Part shown: in pieces, positions 1-31,547 of the stretch
Position numbering within the stretch: the stretch's first letter is position 1
Layout: every line of letters begins with the position of its first letter
Assembly (NCBI GenBank): GCA_029008095.1
Contig: JAQXJB010000025.1
Span: 34,448 to 66,447 of the forward strand
Origin: Clostridiales bacterium
GTDB taxonomy: Bacteria > Bacillota > Clostridia > Oscillospirales > Oscillospiraceae
Direction: 5' to 3'
DNA length: 32,000 nucleotides
Program-made: the position numbers and the translations under genes
Notes under the pieces: generated by a model
What the model was told of the DNA's origin: nothing
Database searches by the model: none
What the model saw: the letters and a program-made list of their open reading frames with translations, nothing else

Positions 1-84
1 TAAATCCCTTTGGGGATTTGTGAAATTTGCTTCGCAAGTGAAATATGGCTTCGCCATGTGAAATGCCTGCGGGCGTGAGGGGGC
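1..84 (+). repeat. GTGAAAT-punctuated hairpin array, copy alpha (left end cut by the window edge)
   Basis: Hairpin AAATCCC/GGGATTT (2-19), GTGAAAT (20-26), hairpin TTGC/GCAA (27-37), GTGAAAT (38-44), hairpin ATGGC/GCCAT (45-57), GTGAAAT (58-64), GTGAGG (75-80). Bases 1-70 are 65/70 identical to 31192-31261. Confidence 0.8.
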
Positions 85-2741: not shown

Positions 2742-5090
2742 ATGATTAAATACAGAGTGCATGAGGTGGCCAAGGACTTCAAGACCACTTCGAAGGTCAT
2801 CACGGAGGTTCTTACCAAGTATGCCACCGCGCCTAAAAATCACATGCAGGTGCTCACTGACCATGAGCTCAATATTATTTTCGACTATCTCACGCTGAAT
2901 AACCAGATCAGCGATATGGCGGAGATATTTGCCGGAGCTGCTCCCGCCGCGAAGGCCGAGACGCCCGCCGCGCAGCCCGCGGAGGCGAAGCCTGCCCAGC
3001 AGCCCAAGCCCCAGCAGGCTCAGCAGCCCAAGCCTCAGCCCGCGCAGCAGCAGGCAAAGCCTCAGCAGCAGGAGAAGCAGGCTCAGCCCGTCCAGCAGCC
3101 CCAGTCCCGCGTGCCCCAGAAGCGCATAATCGATACCAGCGGCGCCACTCTCAACGCCGCCAAGTATGACGAGCGCCTGGATAACTTCGTGCCCGACCGC
3201 CTTGCCAATGCGAAGCAGGGCAAGGAGAAGTTCGCCAAGCGCGGCGGCGATAAGCGCGGCAATATGGCTCAGGGCGCAAAGAAGCGCCAGGAGCAGAAGG
3301 CTCAGATGCAGAAGCTCCAGCTCGAGATAGCCAAAAAGGCGCCCACCAAGGTCTCCATTCCGGACAGCATCAACGTTGGCGAGCTGGCCTCCCGCATGAA
3401 AAAGACTGCCGCCGAGGTTGTGAGAACCCTCATCAAGAACGGCGTTATGGCCTCCATTTCCGATGTTATCGACTTCGACACCGCCGCTATCATTGCCGAG
3501 GAGCTGGGCTGCGTTGTTGAGAAAGAGGTAGTTGTCACCATCGAGGAGCGCCTGATTGACGATTCCGAGGACAAAGCGGAGGATCTGCGTCCCCGTGCTC
3601 CCGTTGTTGTTGTTATGGGTCACGTTGACCACGGTAAGACCTCCCTGCTGGACCGCATCCGCAACGCCCACGTCGCCGACGGCGAGGCCGGCGGCATTAC
3701 CCAGCACATCGGCGCTTATCAGGTGGAGATCAACGGCAAGCCCATCACCTTCCTTGACACTCCCGGCCACGAGGCCTTCACCTCTATGCGCGCCCGCGGC
3801 GCTATGGTCACCGACGTGGCCATTCTGGTGGTAGCTGCCGACGACGGCATTATGCCCCAGACTATCGAGTCCATCAGCCATGCCCGCGCCGCCGATATAC
3901 CCATCATCGTCGCCGTGAACAAGATGGATAAGCCCGGAGCAAACTCCGACCGCATCAAGCAGCAGCTCACCGAGCACGAGCTGGTTTGCGAGGAATGGGG
4001 CGGCGACACCATCGTCTGCGAGATCTCCGCAAAGACCGGCATGGGTGTGGATAACCTGCTGGAAATGGTTGCCCTCTCCGCCGAAATGCGCGAGCTGAAG
4101 GCCAACCCCAACCGTCTTGCCAAGGGTACTGTCATCGAGGCAAGACTGGATAAGGGCCGCGGCCCCATCGCCACCGTCCTCGTCCAGAACGGTACTCTTC
4201 GTTCCGGCGATATCATCATCGCGGGTACTGCCGTAGGCCGTGTCCGCACCATGATAAACGATAAGGGCCAGCGCATCGACAAAGCCGGCCCCTCCGTGCC
4301 CGTGGAGATCACCGGCATGAGCGAAACTCCCGGTGCGGGCGACGTTTTCAACGTTGTTGAGGACGAGCGCATGGCCCGTGAGCTGGTCGAGCAGCGCAAG
4401 GAGGAAAAGAAGAAGAGCACCACCGGCAGCGAACGCAAGGTCTCTCTGGACGATCTCTTTGCCCAGATCAAGGAGGGCGAGCTCAAGGAGCTGGCCATCA
4501 TCGTCAAGGCGGACGTTCAGGGCTCCGCCGAGGCGGTCAAGTCCTCTCTGGAGAAGCTGAGCAACGAAGAGGTGCGCGTGCGCGTCATCCACTCCGCCGT
4601 CGGCGCCATCAACGAGAGCGATATCATGCTCGCCTCCACCTCCAACGCCATCATCGTCGGCTTCAACGTCCGCCCCGATGCCGCCGCCCGTGACAGCGCC
4701 GTCCGCAACAAGGTGGATATGCGCATGTACCGCGTCATTTATGAGTGCATCGAGGAGATCGAGGCTGCTATGAAGGGTATGCTCGCGCCCCAGTTCAAGG
4801 AAGTCCTGCTGGGTCACGCCGAGGTTCGCCAGACCTACAAGGTTTCCAAGATCGGCACCATCGCCGGCTGCTATGTTCAGGACGGCAAAATCATCCGCAA
4901 CGCCTCCGTGCGCCTTGTCCGCGACGGTATCGTCATCCACGAGGGTGAGCTGGCGTCCCTGAAGCGCTTCAAGGACGACGTCAAGGAAGTTGCCAGCGGC
5001 TACGAATGCGGCCTTTCCATCGAGAAGTACAACGATATCAAGGAAGGCGACATCATCGAAGCCTATACAATGGAACAGATAAAGCTGTAA
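2742..5090 (+). CDS. infB: Translation initiation factor IF-2
   Basis: ORF 2736-5090. The ATG at 2742 is 7 nt after GGGGAGG. G-domain motifs [25 protein letters not shown] and NKMD are present. There is a P/Q/A-rich N-terminal linker. Confidence 0.95.
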
Positions 5091-5111: not shown

Positions 5112-5216
5112 ATGTCATTCTGAGCCCGCCAACGGCGGAAGCGAAGAATCCCCGCAGTAAAGGAACTGCAAATGTAAACCTTCTGCGGAGATTCTTCACT
5201 TCGTTCAGAATGACAT
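5112..5216 (+). repeat. ~100-bp TIR hairpin element, copy 2 (orientation A)
   Basis: ATGTCATTCTGAGCCCGCCAACGGCGGAAGCGAAGAATCCCCGCAG...ACTGCAAAT...CTGCGGAGATTCTTCACTTCGTTCAGAATGACAT. Flanked by TA on both sides. Confidence 0.9.
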
Positions 5217-5483: not shown

Positions 5484-5588
5484 ATGTCATTCTGAGCCCG
5501 CCAACGGCGGAAGCGAAGAATCCCCGCAGTAACGGAACTGCCAATGTGAACCTTCTGCGGAGATTCTTCACTTCGTTCAGAATGACAT
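5484..5588 (+). repeat. ~100-bp TIR hairpin element, copy 3 (orientation A)
   Basis: Near-identical to copy 2, including the left flank AACATAAAGAAT and the right flank ATATTTTT. Lies 372 bp downstream of copy 2. Confidence 0.9.
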
Positions 5589-11646: not shown

Positions 11647-11750
11647 ATGTCATCCTGAACGCAGTGAAGAATCTCCGCAGGCGGTCGACATCGGCTGTCA
11701 AATCAATGCGGAGATTCTTCGCATCCGCCTGGGGCGGGCTCAGAATGACA
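11647..11750 (-). repeat. ~100-bp TIR hairpin element, copy 4 (orientation B)
   Basis: ATGTCATCCTGAACGCAGTGAAGAATCTCCGCAG...TGCGGAGATTCTTCGCATCCGCCTGGGGCGGGCTCAGAATGACA. This is the reverse complement of the orientation-A pattern. Confidence 0.9.
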
Positions 11751-11800: not shown

Positions 11801-11907
11801 ATGTCATCCTGAACGCAGTGAAGAATCTCCGCAGGTGGTTGACATCGGCAGACCAATCAATGCGGAGATTCTTCGCAACACGCTTTCAGCGCAGCTCAGA
11901 ATGACAT
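11801..11907 (-). repeat. ~100-bp TIR hairpin element, copy 5 (orientation B)
   Basis: Same arms as copy 4. The side hairpin here is CGCT-TTC-AGCG. TA flanks both ends. Confidence 0.9.
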
Positions 11908-19850: not shown

Positions 19851-19931
19851 GCTTTCGCTCAGAATCTCCCAACTGACGGAACTGCCTATCTAAATCCAAC
19901 ACGGGAGATTCTTCCCGATGGTCAGAATGAC
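19851..19931 (+). repeat. TIR hairpin element, copy 6 (left terminus missing)
   Basis: GCTTTCGCTCAGAATCTCCC...GGAACTGCCTATCTAAATCC...CGGGAGATTCTTCCCGATGGTCAGAATGAC. Aligns to copy 7 except for the absent ATGTCATTCTGA end. Confidence 0.7.
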
Positions 19932-19982: not shown

Positions 19983-20073
19983 ATGTCATTCTGAGCTTGC
20001 GAAGAATCTCCCATGTAACGTTACTGCCTATCTAAAACCAACCCCGGAGATTCTTCCCGATGGTCAGAATGAC
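19983..20073 (+). repeat. TIR hairpin element, copy 7 (orientation A, short variant)
   Basis: ATGTCATTCTGAGCTTGCGAAGAATCTCCC...TTACTGCCTATC...CCGGAGATTCTTCCCGATGGTCAGAATGAC. Confidence 0.85.
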
Positions 20074-27923: not shown

Positions 27924-28027
27924 ATGTCATTCTGACCGAAGGGAAGAATCTCCGCAGTCGGGTTTAGAGTGGCAGTCAAATCAGTGCGGAGATTCTTCGC
28001 ACACGCTTCGCGTGGCTCAGAATGACA
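27924..28027 (-). repeat. ~100-bp TIR hairpin element, copy 9 (orientation B)
   Basis: ATGTCATTCTGACCGAAGGGAAGAATCTCCGCAG...TGGCAGTCAAATCAG...TGCGGAGATTCTTCGCACACGCTTCGCGTGGCTCAGAATGACA. The side hairpin is CACGC-TTC-GCGTG. Confidence 0.9.
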
Positions 28028-28188: not shown

Positions 28189-28370
28189 CACAGCAAAAAC
28201 GATAATGGGTATAAACGGAAAGAGCAGCACCGTAGGGGCGTGCATCGCACGCCCGGAGTGGAACGATGCCCACAGCAGAAACGATAATGGGTATAAACGG
28301 AAAGAGCAGCACCGTAGGGGCGTGCATCGCACGCCCGGAGTGGAACGATGCCCACAGCAGAAACAATAAT
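28189..28370. repeat. 82-bp tandem repeat (2 full copies plus a partial third), each copy containing a REP-like unit
   Basis: Units 28189-28270 and 28271-28352 are 81/82 identical. Each contains CAGAAACGATAAT (the reverse complement of the ATTATCGTTTCTG linker) and GTAG-GGGCGTGC-ATC-GCACGCCC (28232-28254 and 28314-28336). A third copy starts at 28353 and then diverges. Confidence 0.9.
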
Positions 28371-30413: not shown

Positions 30414-31040
30414 ATGAAAGTTCTGCTTATAAACGGAAGTCCCCACGAGAAGGGCTGCACCTATACCGCCCTTGAGGAGGTCGCCGGTGCGCTGCAGGCA
30501 AACGGCGTGGAGACCGAAATCTTCTGGATAGGCAATAAGCCCATCGGAGGCTGTATCGGCTGCGGCGCCTGCTTCAGGGAGAAAAACGGCTGCGTTTTCG
30601 GAGCGGAGGACGGCGTGAACGAGTGTACCGCCAAGCTGAAGGCGGCCGATGGCGTGGTTATCGGCTCTCCGGTGCATTACGCCTCCGCGGGCGGCAATAT
30701 CTGCGCTTTTCTGGATAGAGTGTTCTACTCCAAGAGCAGCTTCGCGGGAAAGCCGGGCGCGGCCGTTGTGAGCTGCCGCCGCGGCGGAGCAAGCGCGGCC
30801 TTTGACCGTCTTAATAAATATTTCACCATTTCCTCCATGCCCATCGTCAGCTCCACCTATTGGAACAGCGTTCACGGCAATACCCCCGAGCAGGTAAAGC
30901 AGGATCTCGAGGGCCTGCAGGTGATGCGCCATCTGGGCAATAATATGGCCTGGCTGCTCAAGTGCATCGAGGCCGGCAAGGAAAAGGGACTCGACGTACC
31001 CGCACCCGAGCCCAGAGTCAGCACGAATTTTATCAGATAA
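30414..31040 (+). CDS. Flavodoxin-like fold NAD(P)H-dependent FMN reductase / iron-sulfur flavoprotein-like
   Basis: ORF 30354-31040. The ATG at 30414 follows AAAGGA. N-terminus MKVLLINGSPHEKGCT, Cys cluster GGCIGCGAC, and the segment VIGSPVHYASAGG. Confidence 0.8.
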   Translation: MKVLLINGSPHEKGCTYTALEEVAGALQANGVETEIFWIGNKPIGGCIGCGACFREKNGCVFGAEDGVNECTAKLKAADGVVIGSPVHYASAGGNICAFLDRVFYSKSSFAGKPGAAVVSCRRGGASAAFDRLNKYFTISSMPIVSSTYWNSVHGNTPEQVKQDLEGLQVMRHLGNNMAWLLKCIEAGKEKGLDVPAPEPRVSTNFIR

Positions 31041-31050
31041 GAAGTAAAAG

Positions 31051-31091
31051 ACCGTCAGCAGGCCGCGTTTGCGCAATGCTGGCGGTTTTTT
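31051..31091 (+). terminator. Intrinsic terminator after the flavodoxin-like gene
   Basis: ACCGTCAGCA (31051-31060) pairs with TGCTGGCGGT (31077-31086), followed by TTTTTTAT. Confidence 0.65.
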
Positions 31092-31159
31092 ATGCCGCGA
31101 TAAAATGTGGCGTGTCGATATGCAGAATATAACGTATAAATCGCAATATAAAAAGATTT

Positions 31160-31178
31160 GTCATTCTGAGCCCGCCGC
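31160..31178 (+). repeat. Truncated left terminus of a TIR hairpin element (copy 11)
   Basis: GTCATTCTGAGCCCGCCGC is identical to the first 19 nt of copy 1 (88-106). The sequence then runs into the hairpin array. Confidence 0.6.
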
Positions 31179-31192
31179 TTTTCAAACGAAAT

Positions 31193-31411
31193 AAATCCCT
31201 TTCGGGATTTGTGAAATTTGCTTCGCAAGTGAAATACGCCTTCGGCGTGTGAAATGCCTGCTTATCGTGAGTGGCGCGCTTCACTTCCATTGTGCCGGGC
31301 ACAATACTTCACGGCGGCGCAGACGCTGCTTCACTTCCCGGCACAGCCGGGATACTTCACAAAAAAGCGTAAAAACATCGAAAGCACTTGCTGCTGCAGG
31401 TGCTTTTTCAC
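31193..31411 (+). repeat. GTGAAAT/CTTCAC-punctuated hairpin array, copy beta (complete); candidate structured ncRNA
   Basis: Three hairpins, each followed by GTGAAAT (31211, 31229, 31249). GTGAGT at 31267. The mirrored motif CTTCAC/ACTTCAC at 31279, 31306, 31329 and 31354 is interleaved with three more hairpins. The array ends in a 9-bp stem (31383-31404) plus TTTT. Confidence 0.75.
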
Positions 31412-31466
31412 TTTATTTCAGCCCGACTGGGAAATGTAAACAATTCATTACATTTTTTCCGGCGGA

Positions 31467-31495
31467 TTGACTTGGACTGGGGAATTGGGTATAAT
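31467..31495 (+). promoter_or_regulatory. Consensus-like sigma-A promoter upstream of the MarR gene
   Basis: TTGACT (31467-31472), a 17-nt spacer, then TATAAT (31490-31495). Confidence 0.6.
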
Positions 31496-31547
31496 AGGAT
31501 AGTACAAAAACGAACAGTTCGTTAAATAACTTTTTTCGAGGCGATCT

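Follow-up and report, generated by a model that had tools for sequence, protein, structure and literature searches.

What is the array of short hairpins that lies in front of marR at positions 31160-31411 of a 32,000-nucleotide (nt) stretch of a Clostridiales bacterium genome (contig JAQXJB010000025.1, assembly GCA_029008095.1; the whole stretch is called the window below), and does it act as RNA or as DNA? The hairpins are punctuated by the heptamer GTGAAAT in the left half and by CTTCAC in the right half. A sequence-only reading had described this as a mirror-symmetric array and a candidate novel structured RNA or protein-binding scaffold. As judged by comparison with relatives, the feature is very probably a chimeric, partly decayed member of a family of dyad elements based on the Gut-1 RNA. 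The family of its left arm was known before. New to the searchable literature are the dyad architecture, its subfamilies, its position at tRNA and transfer-messenger RNA (tmRNA) genes and its link to a gene for a 23S_rRNA_IVP protein (IVP below). The whole statement, this identity plus a role of the dyad as an RNA hairpin platform, is rated slightly above even.

Gut-1 and its convergent partner arm

The whole window was scanned with cmscan against Rfam 15, resulting in two matches, both to RF01706 Gut-1 on the + strand. The first covers 31184-31260 with 78.1 bits (gathering score 50, E = 2.7e-14, model positions 1-77 of 77), and the second covers 1-69 with 62.5 bits and is cut by the window start. 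No tRNA was found in the window by the Rfam scan. In the first match, GTGAAAT stands at 31211, 31229 and 31249, with near-perfect hairpins between (AAATCCC/GGGATTT, TTGC/GCAA and ACGCC/GGCGT), which are P1 (31193-31210), P2 (31218-31228) and P3 (31236-31248). The same features define the Gut-1 motif: three hairpins with compensatory variation, an invariant GUGAAAU between them, UGAAAU in front, and relatives from gut bacteria. A conserved structured element was thus correctly recognized in the earlier reading; the novelty claimed for it does not extend to the left half.

GTGAAAT was counted 11 times in the window against 3.1 expected (0 of 100 shuffles with at least 11), and six of the 11 belong to the two Gut-1 copies (clusters 20-64 and 31211-31255). 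GTGAAG was counted 33 times against 13.0 expected (0 of 100 shuffles with at least 33). The element at 31160-31411 had a predicted RNA folding energy of -91.6 kcal/mol on the + strand (z = -6.2) and of -83.7 kcal/mol on the - strand (z = -3.5).

The discovery paper (Weinberg et al., 2010; PMC2864571) states no more about the distribution of Gut-1 than its occurrence in human-gut metagenomes; 43 sequences are listed there, and a small RNA is considered probable. The text of that paper, the Gut-1 passages of its supplement and the Rfam model include no closing helix, inverted partner arm or P0 hairpin; the same sources include no tRNA or tmRNA position, no link to an IVP gene and no ATGAAAT or GTGAAG subfamilies. 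Literature searches found no later work on Gut-1, none on GTGAAAT hairpin repeats and little on IVP proteins.

Relatives were collected by a pattern scan of one genome per species for three GTGAAAT at gaps of 8-20 nt, which gave at least 120 loci. The listed loci were mostly from metagenome-assembled genomes (MAGs) of gut Clostridia, Oscillospirales and Christensenellales. Arrays were kept only if the segments between the heptamers were palindromic. Among the matches listed, 84 arrays were obtained in this way, comprising 46 single arms, 37 dyads and one pseudo-divergent case formed by a chance heptamer. All 37 of these dyads are convergent, with copies of GTGAAAT followed by copies of ATTTCAC. 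The mirror symmetry noticed in the window is therefore a property of the whole family, which has no real divergent member, and hairpins and heptamers are conserved together in many homologues. One single arm (L080) has an inverted array about 110 nt downstream. A further metagenome pattern scan for ACTTCAC..CTTCACTTC..ACTTCAC yielded palindromic spacers in none of the 120 listed loci and was swamped by low-complexity CTTCAC tandem repeats, apparently of eukaryotic origin.

Subsets of the dyads were aligned (26), inspected for genomic context (35) or scanned with Rfam (19 dyad-bearing loci). The Gut-1 model matched the left arm in 18 of the 19 scanned loci, the missed one being the ATGAAAT-type arm of L273. 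It also matched the partner arm on the opposite strand in 5 of the 19, with 50-54 bits, which identifies the dyad as a pair of Gut-1-like arrays that point towards one another. The model gave no match to the GTGAAG-type dyad of L397.

The canonical element is about 190-215 nt long. With the Gut-1 arm first, it starts with (CCA-G), an A-tract, the P0 hairpin and a T-tract, followed by CAACGAAAT, which contains CGAAAT. P0, with the A-tract on one side and the T-tract on the other, resembles a bidirectional terminator. The Gut-1 arm consists of P1, GTGAAAT, P2, GTGAAAT, P3, GTGAAAT, P4 and GTGAG/GGG. The centre repeats the sequence of P1's 3' arm, continues with ATTTC and forms a closing helix of 10-12 base pairs (bp) with the 5' end. 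The partner arm reads ATTTCAC, P5, ATTTCAC, P6, ATTTCAC, P7, ATTTCAC, T. Heptamers are spaced by 16-22 nt in the Gut-1 arm and by 24-25 nt in the partner arm. Arrays were taken as partner arms if three hairpins with the heptamer complement between them, at a spacing of 22-28 nt, faced the Gut-1 arm convergently; the window copy has such an arm.

Two genomes (copy pairs in L035 and L067) hold two copies each that are about 99% identical and lie in unrelated flanks. The identity spans the P0 A-tract to one base past the last heptamer, and these sharp boundaries mark a discrete multicopy unit without a promoter of its own. This observation favours the main rival explanation, which is considered rather unlikely: the dyad would be a palindromic intergenic repeat at the DNA level, of the kind of the repetitive extragenic palindrome (REP)/bacterial interspersed mosaic element (BIME), BOX or miniature inverted-repeat transposable element (MITE). 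Placed at gene 3' ends, it would spread or be homogenized by duplication and gene conversion and supply the terminator P0, without a dedicated RNA or protein partner. The cell would tolerate it or draw a mild benefit from it as a terminator, an insulator, a sink for supercoils or a hot spot of recombination. The two-fold symmetry of the unit agrees with this, as does the shuffling of hairpin modules between slots and genomes (ATGGCTTCGCCAT was seen 7 times). For the copies of L035 and L067, multicopy state and sharp boundaries were found, but neither terminal inverted repeats at the unit ends (AAAAAAGCAC... and ...ATTTCACT) nor a target-site duplication. A transposase or REP-associated tyrosine transposase (RAYT) was not consistently found near dyads either, and nor was an integrase (flanking open reading frames (ORFs) were read, and the one scanned against Pfam was an integrase). 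Ordinary islands inserted at tRNA ends account for one context with an integrase and for two with serine recombinases. The canonical element gave no blastn match in reference phage and plasmid collections, which also speaks against a mobile DNA repeat. In IMG/VR, where chance matches and tandem repeats made up most of the hits, the scan gave only 7 real arrays, which shows no enrichment of the element in viruses.

Recombination in the window copy

The window copy was compared part by part with the family. Its 5' boundary had been placed at 31160, but 31159-31178 (+) is the solo left end of an unrelated repeat of about 100 nt (TGTCATTCTGAGCCCGCCGC), here called the TIR repeat after its terminal inverted repeats. 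This end lies outside the Gut-1 family and occupies the place where canonical elements have A-tract, P0 hairpin and T-tract. According to the family alignment and covariation, a conserved 5' lead (TTTTCAAACGAAAT) follows at 31179-31192 (+) and includes the truncated first heptamer CGAAAT at 31187-31192, where the conserved array starts. In canonical elements, this heptamer and the next 6-7 nt pair with the centre segment. The Gut-1 arm (31184-31260) is followed at 31256-31273 (+) by a decayed P4 and a degenerate fifth heptamer (GCCTGCTTATC GTGAGTG), as recognized by comparison with L398 and L397.

On the + strand, CTTCAC occurs at 31279, 31307, 31329 and 31355. The first of these had been counted as a heptamer, but it arises where the centre segment GGCGCGCTTC ends and runs into the damaged first heptamer of the right arm, ACTTC-C; the two occupy 31273-31288 (+). 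Relatives have GGCACGCTTC and ACTTCAC there, and their centre segment pairs with the 5' GAAGCGTGCC, whereas that of the window is without a partner. The partner arm, a Gut-1-like array on the - strand, lies at 31289-31360 in + strand coordinates and comprises P5 (31289-31305), an imperfect P6 (31313-31327) and P7 (31335-31353) with the heptamers ACTTCAC (31306-31312), GCTTCAC (31328-31334) and ACTTCAC (31354-31360). Over 31283-31360, each module has its counterpart in the partner arms of the 26 aligned dyads and in the orthologous GTGAAG-type dyads described below.

An A-rich tail (AAAAAAGCGTAAAAACATC) at 31361-31379 (+) has a homologue after the first copy of the window at about 237-262. Its AAAAGCG (31362-31368) is able to pair with CGCTTTT at 31176-31182. 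The terminator proposed at the right end was recovered by the terminator scan as a P0-type intrinsic (Rho-independent) terminator with a G+C-rich stem and a T-run at 31380-31411 (+), similar to P0 of L067, L111 and L056. It has 12 pairs and a 4-nt loop at 31380-31407, followed by TCACTTTATT, and the 3' arm of the stem ends in TTTT (GGTGCTTTT). In relatives, the P0-type terminator is followed by the truncated start of another element (TTTTTTCAATGA). A promoter scan of the region agreed with the earlier failure to see a promoter upstream: none of sigma-70 type was found there, and the only one in the region (31467-31495) serves marR.

For a comparison of the same site in other strains, relatives were found by a MarR homology search and then by the loci of a 96% identical protein; exact protein matches for the FMN reductase of the window (with either of two start codons) and for MarR were not on record. 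Three loci (L397, L402 and L403) have, upstream of marR, a tRNA-Arg(ccg) gene, P0, a complete GTGAAG-type dyad and a second P0-type terminator, after which the truncated start of another element and the marR promoter follow. In L398 and L400, the GTGAAG-type dyad is present without the tRNA. L399 has a phage-type gene (T4 endonuclease-IV-like) and the second terminator only, and a frameshifted IVP gene of another subfamily takes the place in L401, L405 and L406. The approximately 700 nt upstream of marR, orthologous to window 30900-31547, are thus a strain-variable hot spot with alternative occupants. Such hypervariability, together with the intermingled TIR elements, also fits a DNA-level repeat.

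From GCCTGCTTATCGTG (31256) rightwards, the window is nearly identical to these orthologous loci, and this shared stretch takes in the partner arm, A-rich tail and terminator as well as the marR promoter. Left of 31256 it differs, since GTGAAG-type modules, P0 and tRNA are replaced by GTGAAAT-type modules like those of the first copy of the window. The match on the right and the difference on the left indicate that the window element is a recombinant of two subfamilies, with the junction at about 31255/31256 (comparison with L398 and L397). The right half in particular aligns with the orthologous GTGAAG-type dyads. The mosaic departs from the family in three respects. Its heptamers are not the same in both arms (left GTGAAAT, right (A/G)CTTCAC), its 5' end and centre are complementary over 4 nt against 10-12 nt in 25 of 26 dyads, and the solo end of a TIR repeat replaces P0. 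Recombination accounts for the lost closing helix, the ACTTC-C heptamer, the imperfect P4 and P6 and the mismatch of left and right heptamers. The possible pairing of GTGAAAT with CTTCAC in six of seven positions, noted in the earlier reading, is not designed but a product of the chimera; orthologous loci are of the GTGAAG type in both arms. Probably, the window copy is no working gene but a relic that has retained its fold and the terminator at its end. As a decayed mosaic in a hypervariable spot upstream of marR, it carries a modest message in itself.

The second Gut-1 arm, at 1-69 (+), is likewise incomplete. A complete TIR repeat (88-189) stands in the place expected for its partner arm, of which the last heptamer and the tail (ATTTCAC AAAAGCG) remain at 237-250. 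The arms at 1-69 and 31192-31260 differ by one loop base and by two compensatory pairs in hairpin 3 (ATGGC/GCCAT versus ACGCC/GGCGT). Both versions of hairpin 3 were found again in further genomes and at different slots, so that an exchange of modules seems likelier than point mutation. Copies that are truncated, chimeric or shortened by an internal deletion (both window copies, and one in L241) are again compatible with a DNA-level repeat. Just downstream of the first copy lies a gene at 374-830 onward that, from its translation read by eye, we take to be of the rimP type, at the head of a rimP-nusA-infB region.

Folding, tRNA position and the IVP gene

Constraint on the hairpins was assessed from 1432 stem positions, of which 1345 were Watson-Crick pairs, 16 G-T, 21 A-C and 50 other. 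About 164 distinct hairpins were present, the hairpin form being kept while the sequence differs. The loops have a strong strand bias in the heptamer sense (TTC 32 versus GAA 2, TGC 26 versus GCA 1, TAC 8 versus 1, TTT 9 versus 1), and by this bias each arm is 'sense' on its own strand. The TTC-like loops mentioned in the earlier reading are thus a strand-specific trait of the family.

The 5' GAAAT with the following segment X is perfectly complementary to the centre (X' + ATTTC) over 10-12 nt in 25 of 26 dyads, and X occurs in at least five forms (AAATCC, TCGCC, TTGCCC, CCACCC and TCGTTCC). When 5' ends and centres of different dyads were combined, the complementarity had a mean of 5.3 nt and a maximum of 9. 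RNAalifold selected this closing helix and P5-P7, with 8-15 doubly changed sequences for each variable pair and 8-11 for each pair of the closing helix.

Heptamers are uniform within an element and define three subfamilies: GTGAAAT/ATTTCAC, ATGAAAT/ATTTCAT (L028:75-250, L273, L274 and L276) and GTGAAGY/RCTTCAC (L397, L398, L400 and L402-L404, and a single arm in L120). The change affects both arms, and in the GTGAAG subfamily the closing helix also (GAAAT:ATTTC to GAAGC:GCTTC). Such concerted change indicates that the heptamers are under constraint. It fits pairing between the arms and recognition of both arms by one factor alike, and does not distinguish the two. Single heptamer variants (ATTTCAT, ACTTCAC and ATGAAAT) give mixed signals on strand or register. 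Taken together, the loop bias, the covarying closing helix and the concerted heptamers speak for a folded single strand, and for the heptamers as recognition units, as the targets of selection. All three also count against the DNA-level repeat, to which the absence of a G-U/A-C asymmetry in the stems would be congenial.

Pairing between the arms was the basis of the ladder of four-way junctions proposed for the window, in which one transcript would cross both arms and the paired left and right heptamers would form 7-bp helices that stack with opposed hairpins. Left and right heptamers are exact complements in canonical dyads and change together in the three subfamilies; both strands would give 5'-(GUGAAAU)n...(AUUUCAC)n-3', which would account for the exclusively convergent dyads, and single-sequence folds of L035 use some inter-arm pairing. 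Nevertheless, the ladder is improbable and has no specific support. The concerted change is equally expected if one protein reads each arm on its own strand, and the only long-range helix that covaries, between 5' end and centre, encloses the left-arm heptamers and thereby makes nested pairing with the right arm impossible without a pseudoknot. Position-specific variants are out of nested register (L029, L273 and L397), and the ladder lacks covariation between the arms that is specific to a register. Among the matches listed, 46 of the 84 arrays are single arms without a complement in the immediate cluster, L080 excepted, and in the window every such pair would carry an A-C mismatch on the + strand. 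The other idea of the sequence-only reading, iterated protein-binding sites, is viable.

Genomic context was evaluated for 35 dyads. In 18 of them, only 1-2 nt separate the start of the element from the CCA end of a tRNA gene. The tRNAs are of many different kinds, and the Gut-1 arm is tRNA-proximal and co-oriented in 18 of 18 cases, a fixed orientation that is not expected of a DNA-level repeat. The flanking protein genes are diverse apart from one, which encodes a four-helix-bundle protein of 115 amino acids (aa) of the 23S_rRNA_IVP (Avd-like) family (PF05635, E = 3e-25). It lies co-oriented, 11-60 nt to the right, at 6 of the 35 dyads and also adjoins two single arrays.

An independent sample was taken from the protein side, with five IVP proteins in at least 6 distinct genomic contexts. 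A full dyad was located directly upstream of the IVP gene in every one of these contexts, preceded by P0 and the 3' end of a tRNA or tmRNA gene; in some contexts, no more than a short piece of such an end is left, next to island genes such as those for serine recombinases. Close IVP homologues number thousands in gut metagenomes, with at least 84% identity among the 120 listed. The invariant link with one IVP subfamily is a further argument against a DNA-level repeat. Other IVP subfamilies (L269:188-544 and L401) had no array.

Between the last heptamer and the IVP gene, two arrangements were observed. In one, a promoter follows with its -35 box abutting the heptamer (TTGACT or TTTAAC, N17, TGnTATAAT). 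In the other, only a Shine-Dalgarno sequence is present, 15-22 nt from the last heptamer to the start codon (L074 and L259), and in L259 the sole + strand promoter found is the 12/12 promoter of the tRNA. With a ribosome-binding site alone in front of it, the IVP gene of L074 and L259 could be expressed only if transcription in the Gut-1 sense passes through P0 and the dyad. This arrangement argues for at least some transcription in that sense.

On these grounds, it is tentatively proposed as possible that the dyad is an RNA hairpin platform that presents heptamers to a protein, the IVP protein being a candidate binder. The platform is favoured by the loop bias, the closing helix, the heptamer subfamilies, the fixed orientation to tRNA genes and the invariant position of the IVP gene. 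Situated on the 3' side of tRNA or tmRNA genes with high transcription, the element would form a single-stranded hairpin array, most likely RNA, that is transcribed in the Gut-1 sense through read-through of P0. Variable but very stable hairpins would hold invariant single-stranded heptamers and so constitute a multivalent platform for a sequence-specific binder, for which the pentameric-type 23S_rRNA_IVP (Avd-like) protein encoded directly downstream is the best candidate. The element would then be a leader or regulatory partner of the IVP gene, and solo copies may be decoys or relics.

A more specific version, which we consider unlikely, treats the dyad and the 115-aa IVP protein as one module riding on tRNA and tmRNA genes of gut Clostridia. 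The homologue of the IVP protein in the Protein Data Bank, 2RLD, has five identical chains, and a pentamer of this type would bind five heptamer-like sites per arm (CGAAAT, three GTGAAAT and GTGAGNG) on the read-through RNA. If this were true, the module would supply a partner and a function for the orphan Gut-1 RNA and for the IVP/Avd-like family, such as autoregulation, RNA protection or cassette mobility.

Several observations weigh against the RNA platform and the IVP protein as its binder. No adjacent IVP gene was found at 29 of the 35 dyads of the first sample, and neither window copy has one. The only IVP protein linked to an ATGAAAT-type dyad has no clear residue change that would switch specificity. 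G-U pairs are not in excess over A-C in the stems (16 versus 21), which is unusual for a constraint on RNA only and gives no strand. P0 resembles an efficient terminator, and sense read-through may be rare; intragenomic copies share no promoter. One transcript would read one of the two arms as antisense. Finally, the window chimera mixes heptamer types, so that it is either non-functional or matching is not required.

Transcription from the other strand was considered as well. A small RNA would start at or near the outer heptamers, whose sequence is similar to that of an extended -10 box (TGAAATAAT), and end at the P0 shared with the convergent tRNA gene. P0 could terminate both strands, the partner arms show the same loop bias on that strand, and promoter-like GTGAAA-N16-18-(TG)AATAAT sequences are present at L259:1149-1178 (-) and L249:1420-1447 (-), where the heptamer plus AAT looks like an extended -10 box. 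The matches are weak (9/12), however, and consist of the conserved heptamers themselves, and the spacing of 18-20 nt that is needed occurs in only about 5 of 26 dyads. IVP-linked copies have a strong + strand promoter or a Shine-Dalgarno sequence abutting the last heptamer instead, a sign that the sense strand is used, and to the right of the window element a + strand terminator and no promoter was found. This small RNA is judged very improbable.

The least probable of the alternatives is a double-stranded operator or centromere-like array, in which the heptamers would be iterated sites for a DNA-binding protein that controls an adjacent promoter or organizes the DNA. GTGAAAT resembles half of parS (GTGAAAC) and half of the Noc site (GGGAAAT). 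The dyad symmetry of the heptamers and the -35 box that abuts the last heptamer in IVP-linked copies would suit such an operator. Their spacing of 16-28 bp lacks helical phasing, many copies are without an adjacent promoter, and covarying palindromes with strand-biased loops would be left unexplained.

Gut-1, in Rfam since 2010 as 'human gut only', gains a testable context made up of the sharply bounded dyad, the closing helix, the heptamer subfamilies with their concerted changes, the fixed position and orientation behind tRNA/tmRNA genes, and the IVP link. Gut-1 and the IVP/Avd-like protein, whose role outside diversity-generating retroelements is obscure, become a testable pair. For annotation, it is of importance that the Rfam model misses the GTGAAG subfamily and that elements recombine into chimeras.

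Around the IVP gene, several further arrangements were recorded. A cassette of P0, dyad, IVP gene and orf183 is located between two tRNA-Arg(acg) genes with identical scores at L259:888-2290. Several loci have another gene of variable identity (orf183, DMP19 or a 78-aa ORF) that overlaps the IVP gene. Downstream of its IVP gene, L241 carries the element once more (1880-1990), in a copy in which a precise internal deletion joins the third GTGAAAT to the last ATTTCAC; this copy keeps its outward-facing promoter, now in front of a tRNA_edit (YbaK-like) gene. In L269 (100-620), a different IVP gene of 118 aa lies between smpB and the tmRNA gene and is flanked by inverted short repeats of the AATGCGTAATT type.

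Known systems and neighbouring repeats

REP/BIME of enterobacteria and BOX of Streptococcus pneumoniae are intergenic units, rich in palindromes and built of modules, that occur in many copies at the 3' ends of genes. The number of modules varies, orientations alternate, some copies are mosaic or truncated, and a strong RNA fold is predicted. As far as these elements are generally described, the dyad element shares with them the multicopy, modular, palindromic and mosaic character and the truncated copies. In REP/BIME and BOX, the palindromes are conserved and the linkers vary, whereas in the dyad element the heptamer linkers are invariant and the palindromes vary with compensation (again by general description). 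In contrast to REP/BIME and BOX, the dyad element was found without an association with RAYT or transposase, in a fixed orientation to tRNA genes and with one linked protein gene.

Small RNAs that sequester proteins, of the CsrB/RsmZ type, offer a mechanistic analogy from general knowledge, as they repeat a short invariant single-stranded motif many times on a scaffold of variable hairpins, which is well suited to multivalent binding. Their motif lies in the loops; the heptamer of the dyad lies between the hairpins, has another sequence and has its own complement in the second arm. No dedicated promoter was found for the dyad element, unlike CsrB/RsmZ. Intervening sequences of 23S rRNA with an IVP gene (PF05635) likewise combine an IVP gene beside a highly expressed stable-RNA gene with hairpins in front and an apparent use of the stable-RNA promoter. 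In the dyad element, by contrast, the host genes are tRNA and tmRNA genes and the element lies downstream of them instead of within a helix of rRNA. For the heptamer-punctuated array, no counterpart is described from intervening sequences of rRNA.

Five other classes were rejected. CRISPR arrays have identical direct repeats of 25-40 nt with unique, non-palindromic spacers and usually cas genes close by. CRISPR-DR models stayed below threshold with 17.9 and 17.8 bits (gathering scores 37 and 42), and the repeat would be 7 nt long with 'spacers' that are palindromes of 11-18 nt. Type III toxin-antitoxin arrays (ToxI-like) consist of tandem, nearly identical repeats of 34-36 nt followed by a terminator and a toxin gene. 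The units of the dyad differ in sequence and length (18-28 nt), and no conserved toxin gene follows downstream. In integron attC arrays, the 7-mers that flank a hairpin are inverted, whereas those of the dyad element are direct. An invertible segment bounded by an 11-nt inverted repeat was dismissed, as all-direct arrays were absent from the 84 arrays among the matches listed. A coding region was dismissed because the heptamer spacings are not multiples of 3.

Heptamer-punctuated arrays were also observed outside the Clostridia. Akkermansia MAGs contain hairpin arrays punctuated by GTGAAAT (L004:2314-2540, 2753-2980 and 3250-3330; L010; L066), and in L004 the GTGAAAT array is followed, in direct orientation, by hairpins punctuated by CGAGATT. 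From these, heptamer-punctuated hairpin arrays seem to be a wider class that crosses phyla. On the reading of dyad and IVP protein as one module, considered unlikely above, arrays with GTGAAAT, ATGAAAT, GTGAAG or the CGAGATT of Akkermansia would represent a new class of protein-recognition scaffolds.

The TIR repeats of the window form a separate family of about 100 nt, with the ends TGTCATTCTGAGC...GCTCAGAATGACA and long, imperfectly complementary arms. Complete repeats are located at 88-189, 5114-5214, 5486-5586, 11649-11749, 11803-11905, 19985-20073 and 27926-28026, and solo ends near 19922, 20337, 28392 and 31160, giving at least 7 complete copies and 4 solo ends in 32 kb. End matches numbered 18 against 1.3 expected. 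No Rfam family matched the repeat at the gathering score. A relation to the hairpin array through the shared motif CTTCACTTC had been suspected and proved coincidental, as other TIR copies have CTTCACTGC, CTTCGC or CTTCCC at this place. The only real relation between Gut-1 and the TIR repeat is physical adjacency or insertion: one copy is inserted in the first Gut-1 copy, and a solo end abuts the second. In addition, a tandem repeat of 82 bp (2.2 copies, 98% matches) was found at 28189-28370, in a repeat-rich spacer between two ends of TIR repeats.

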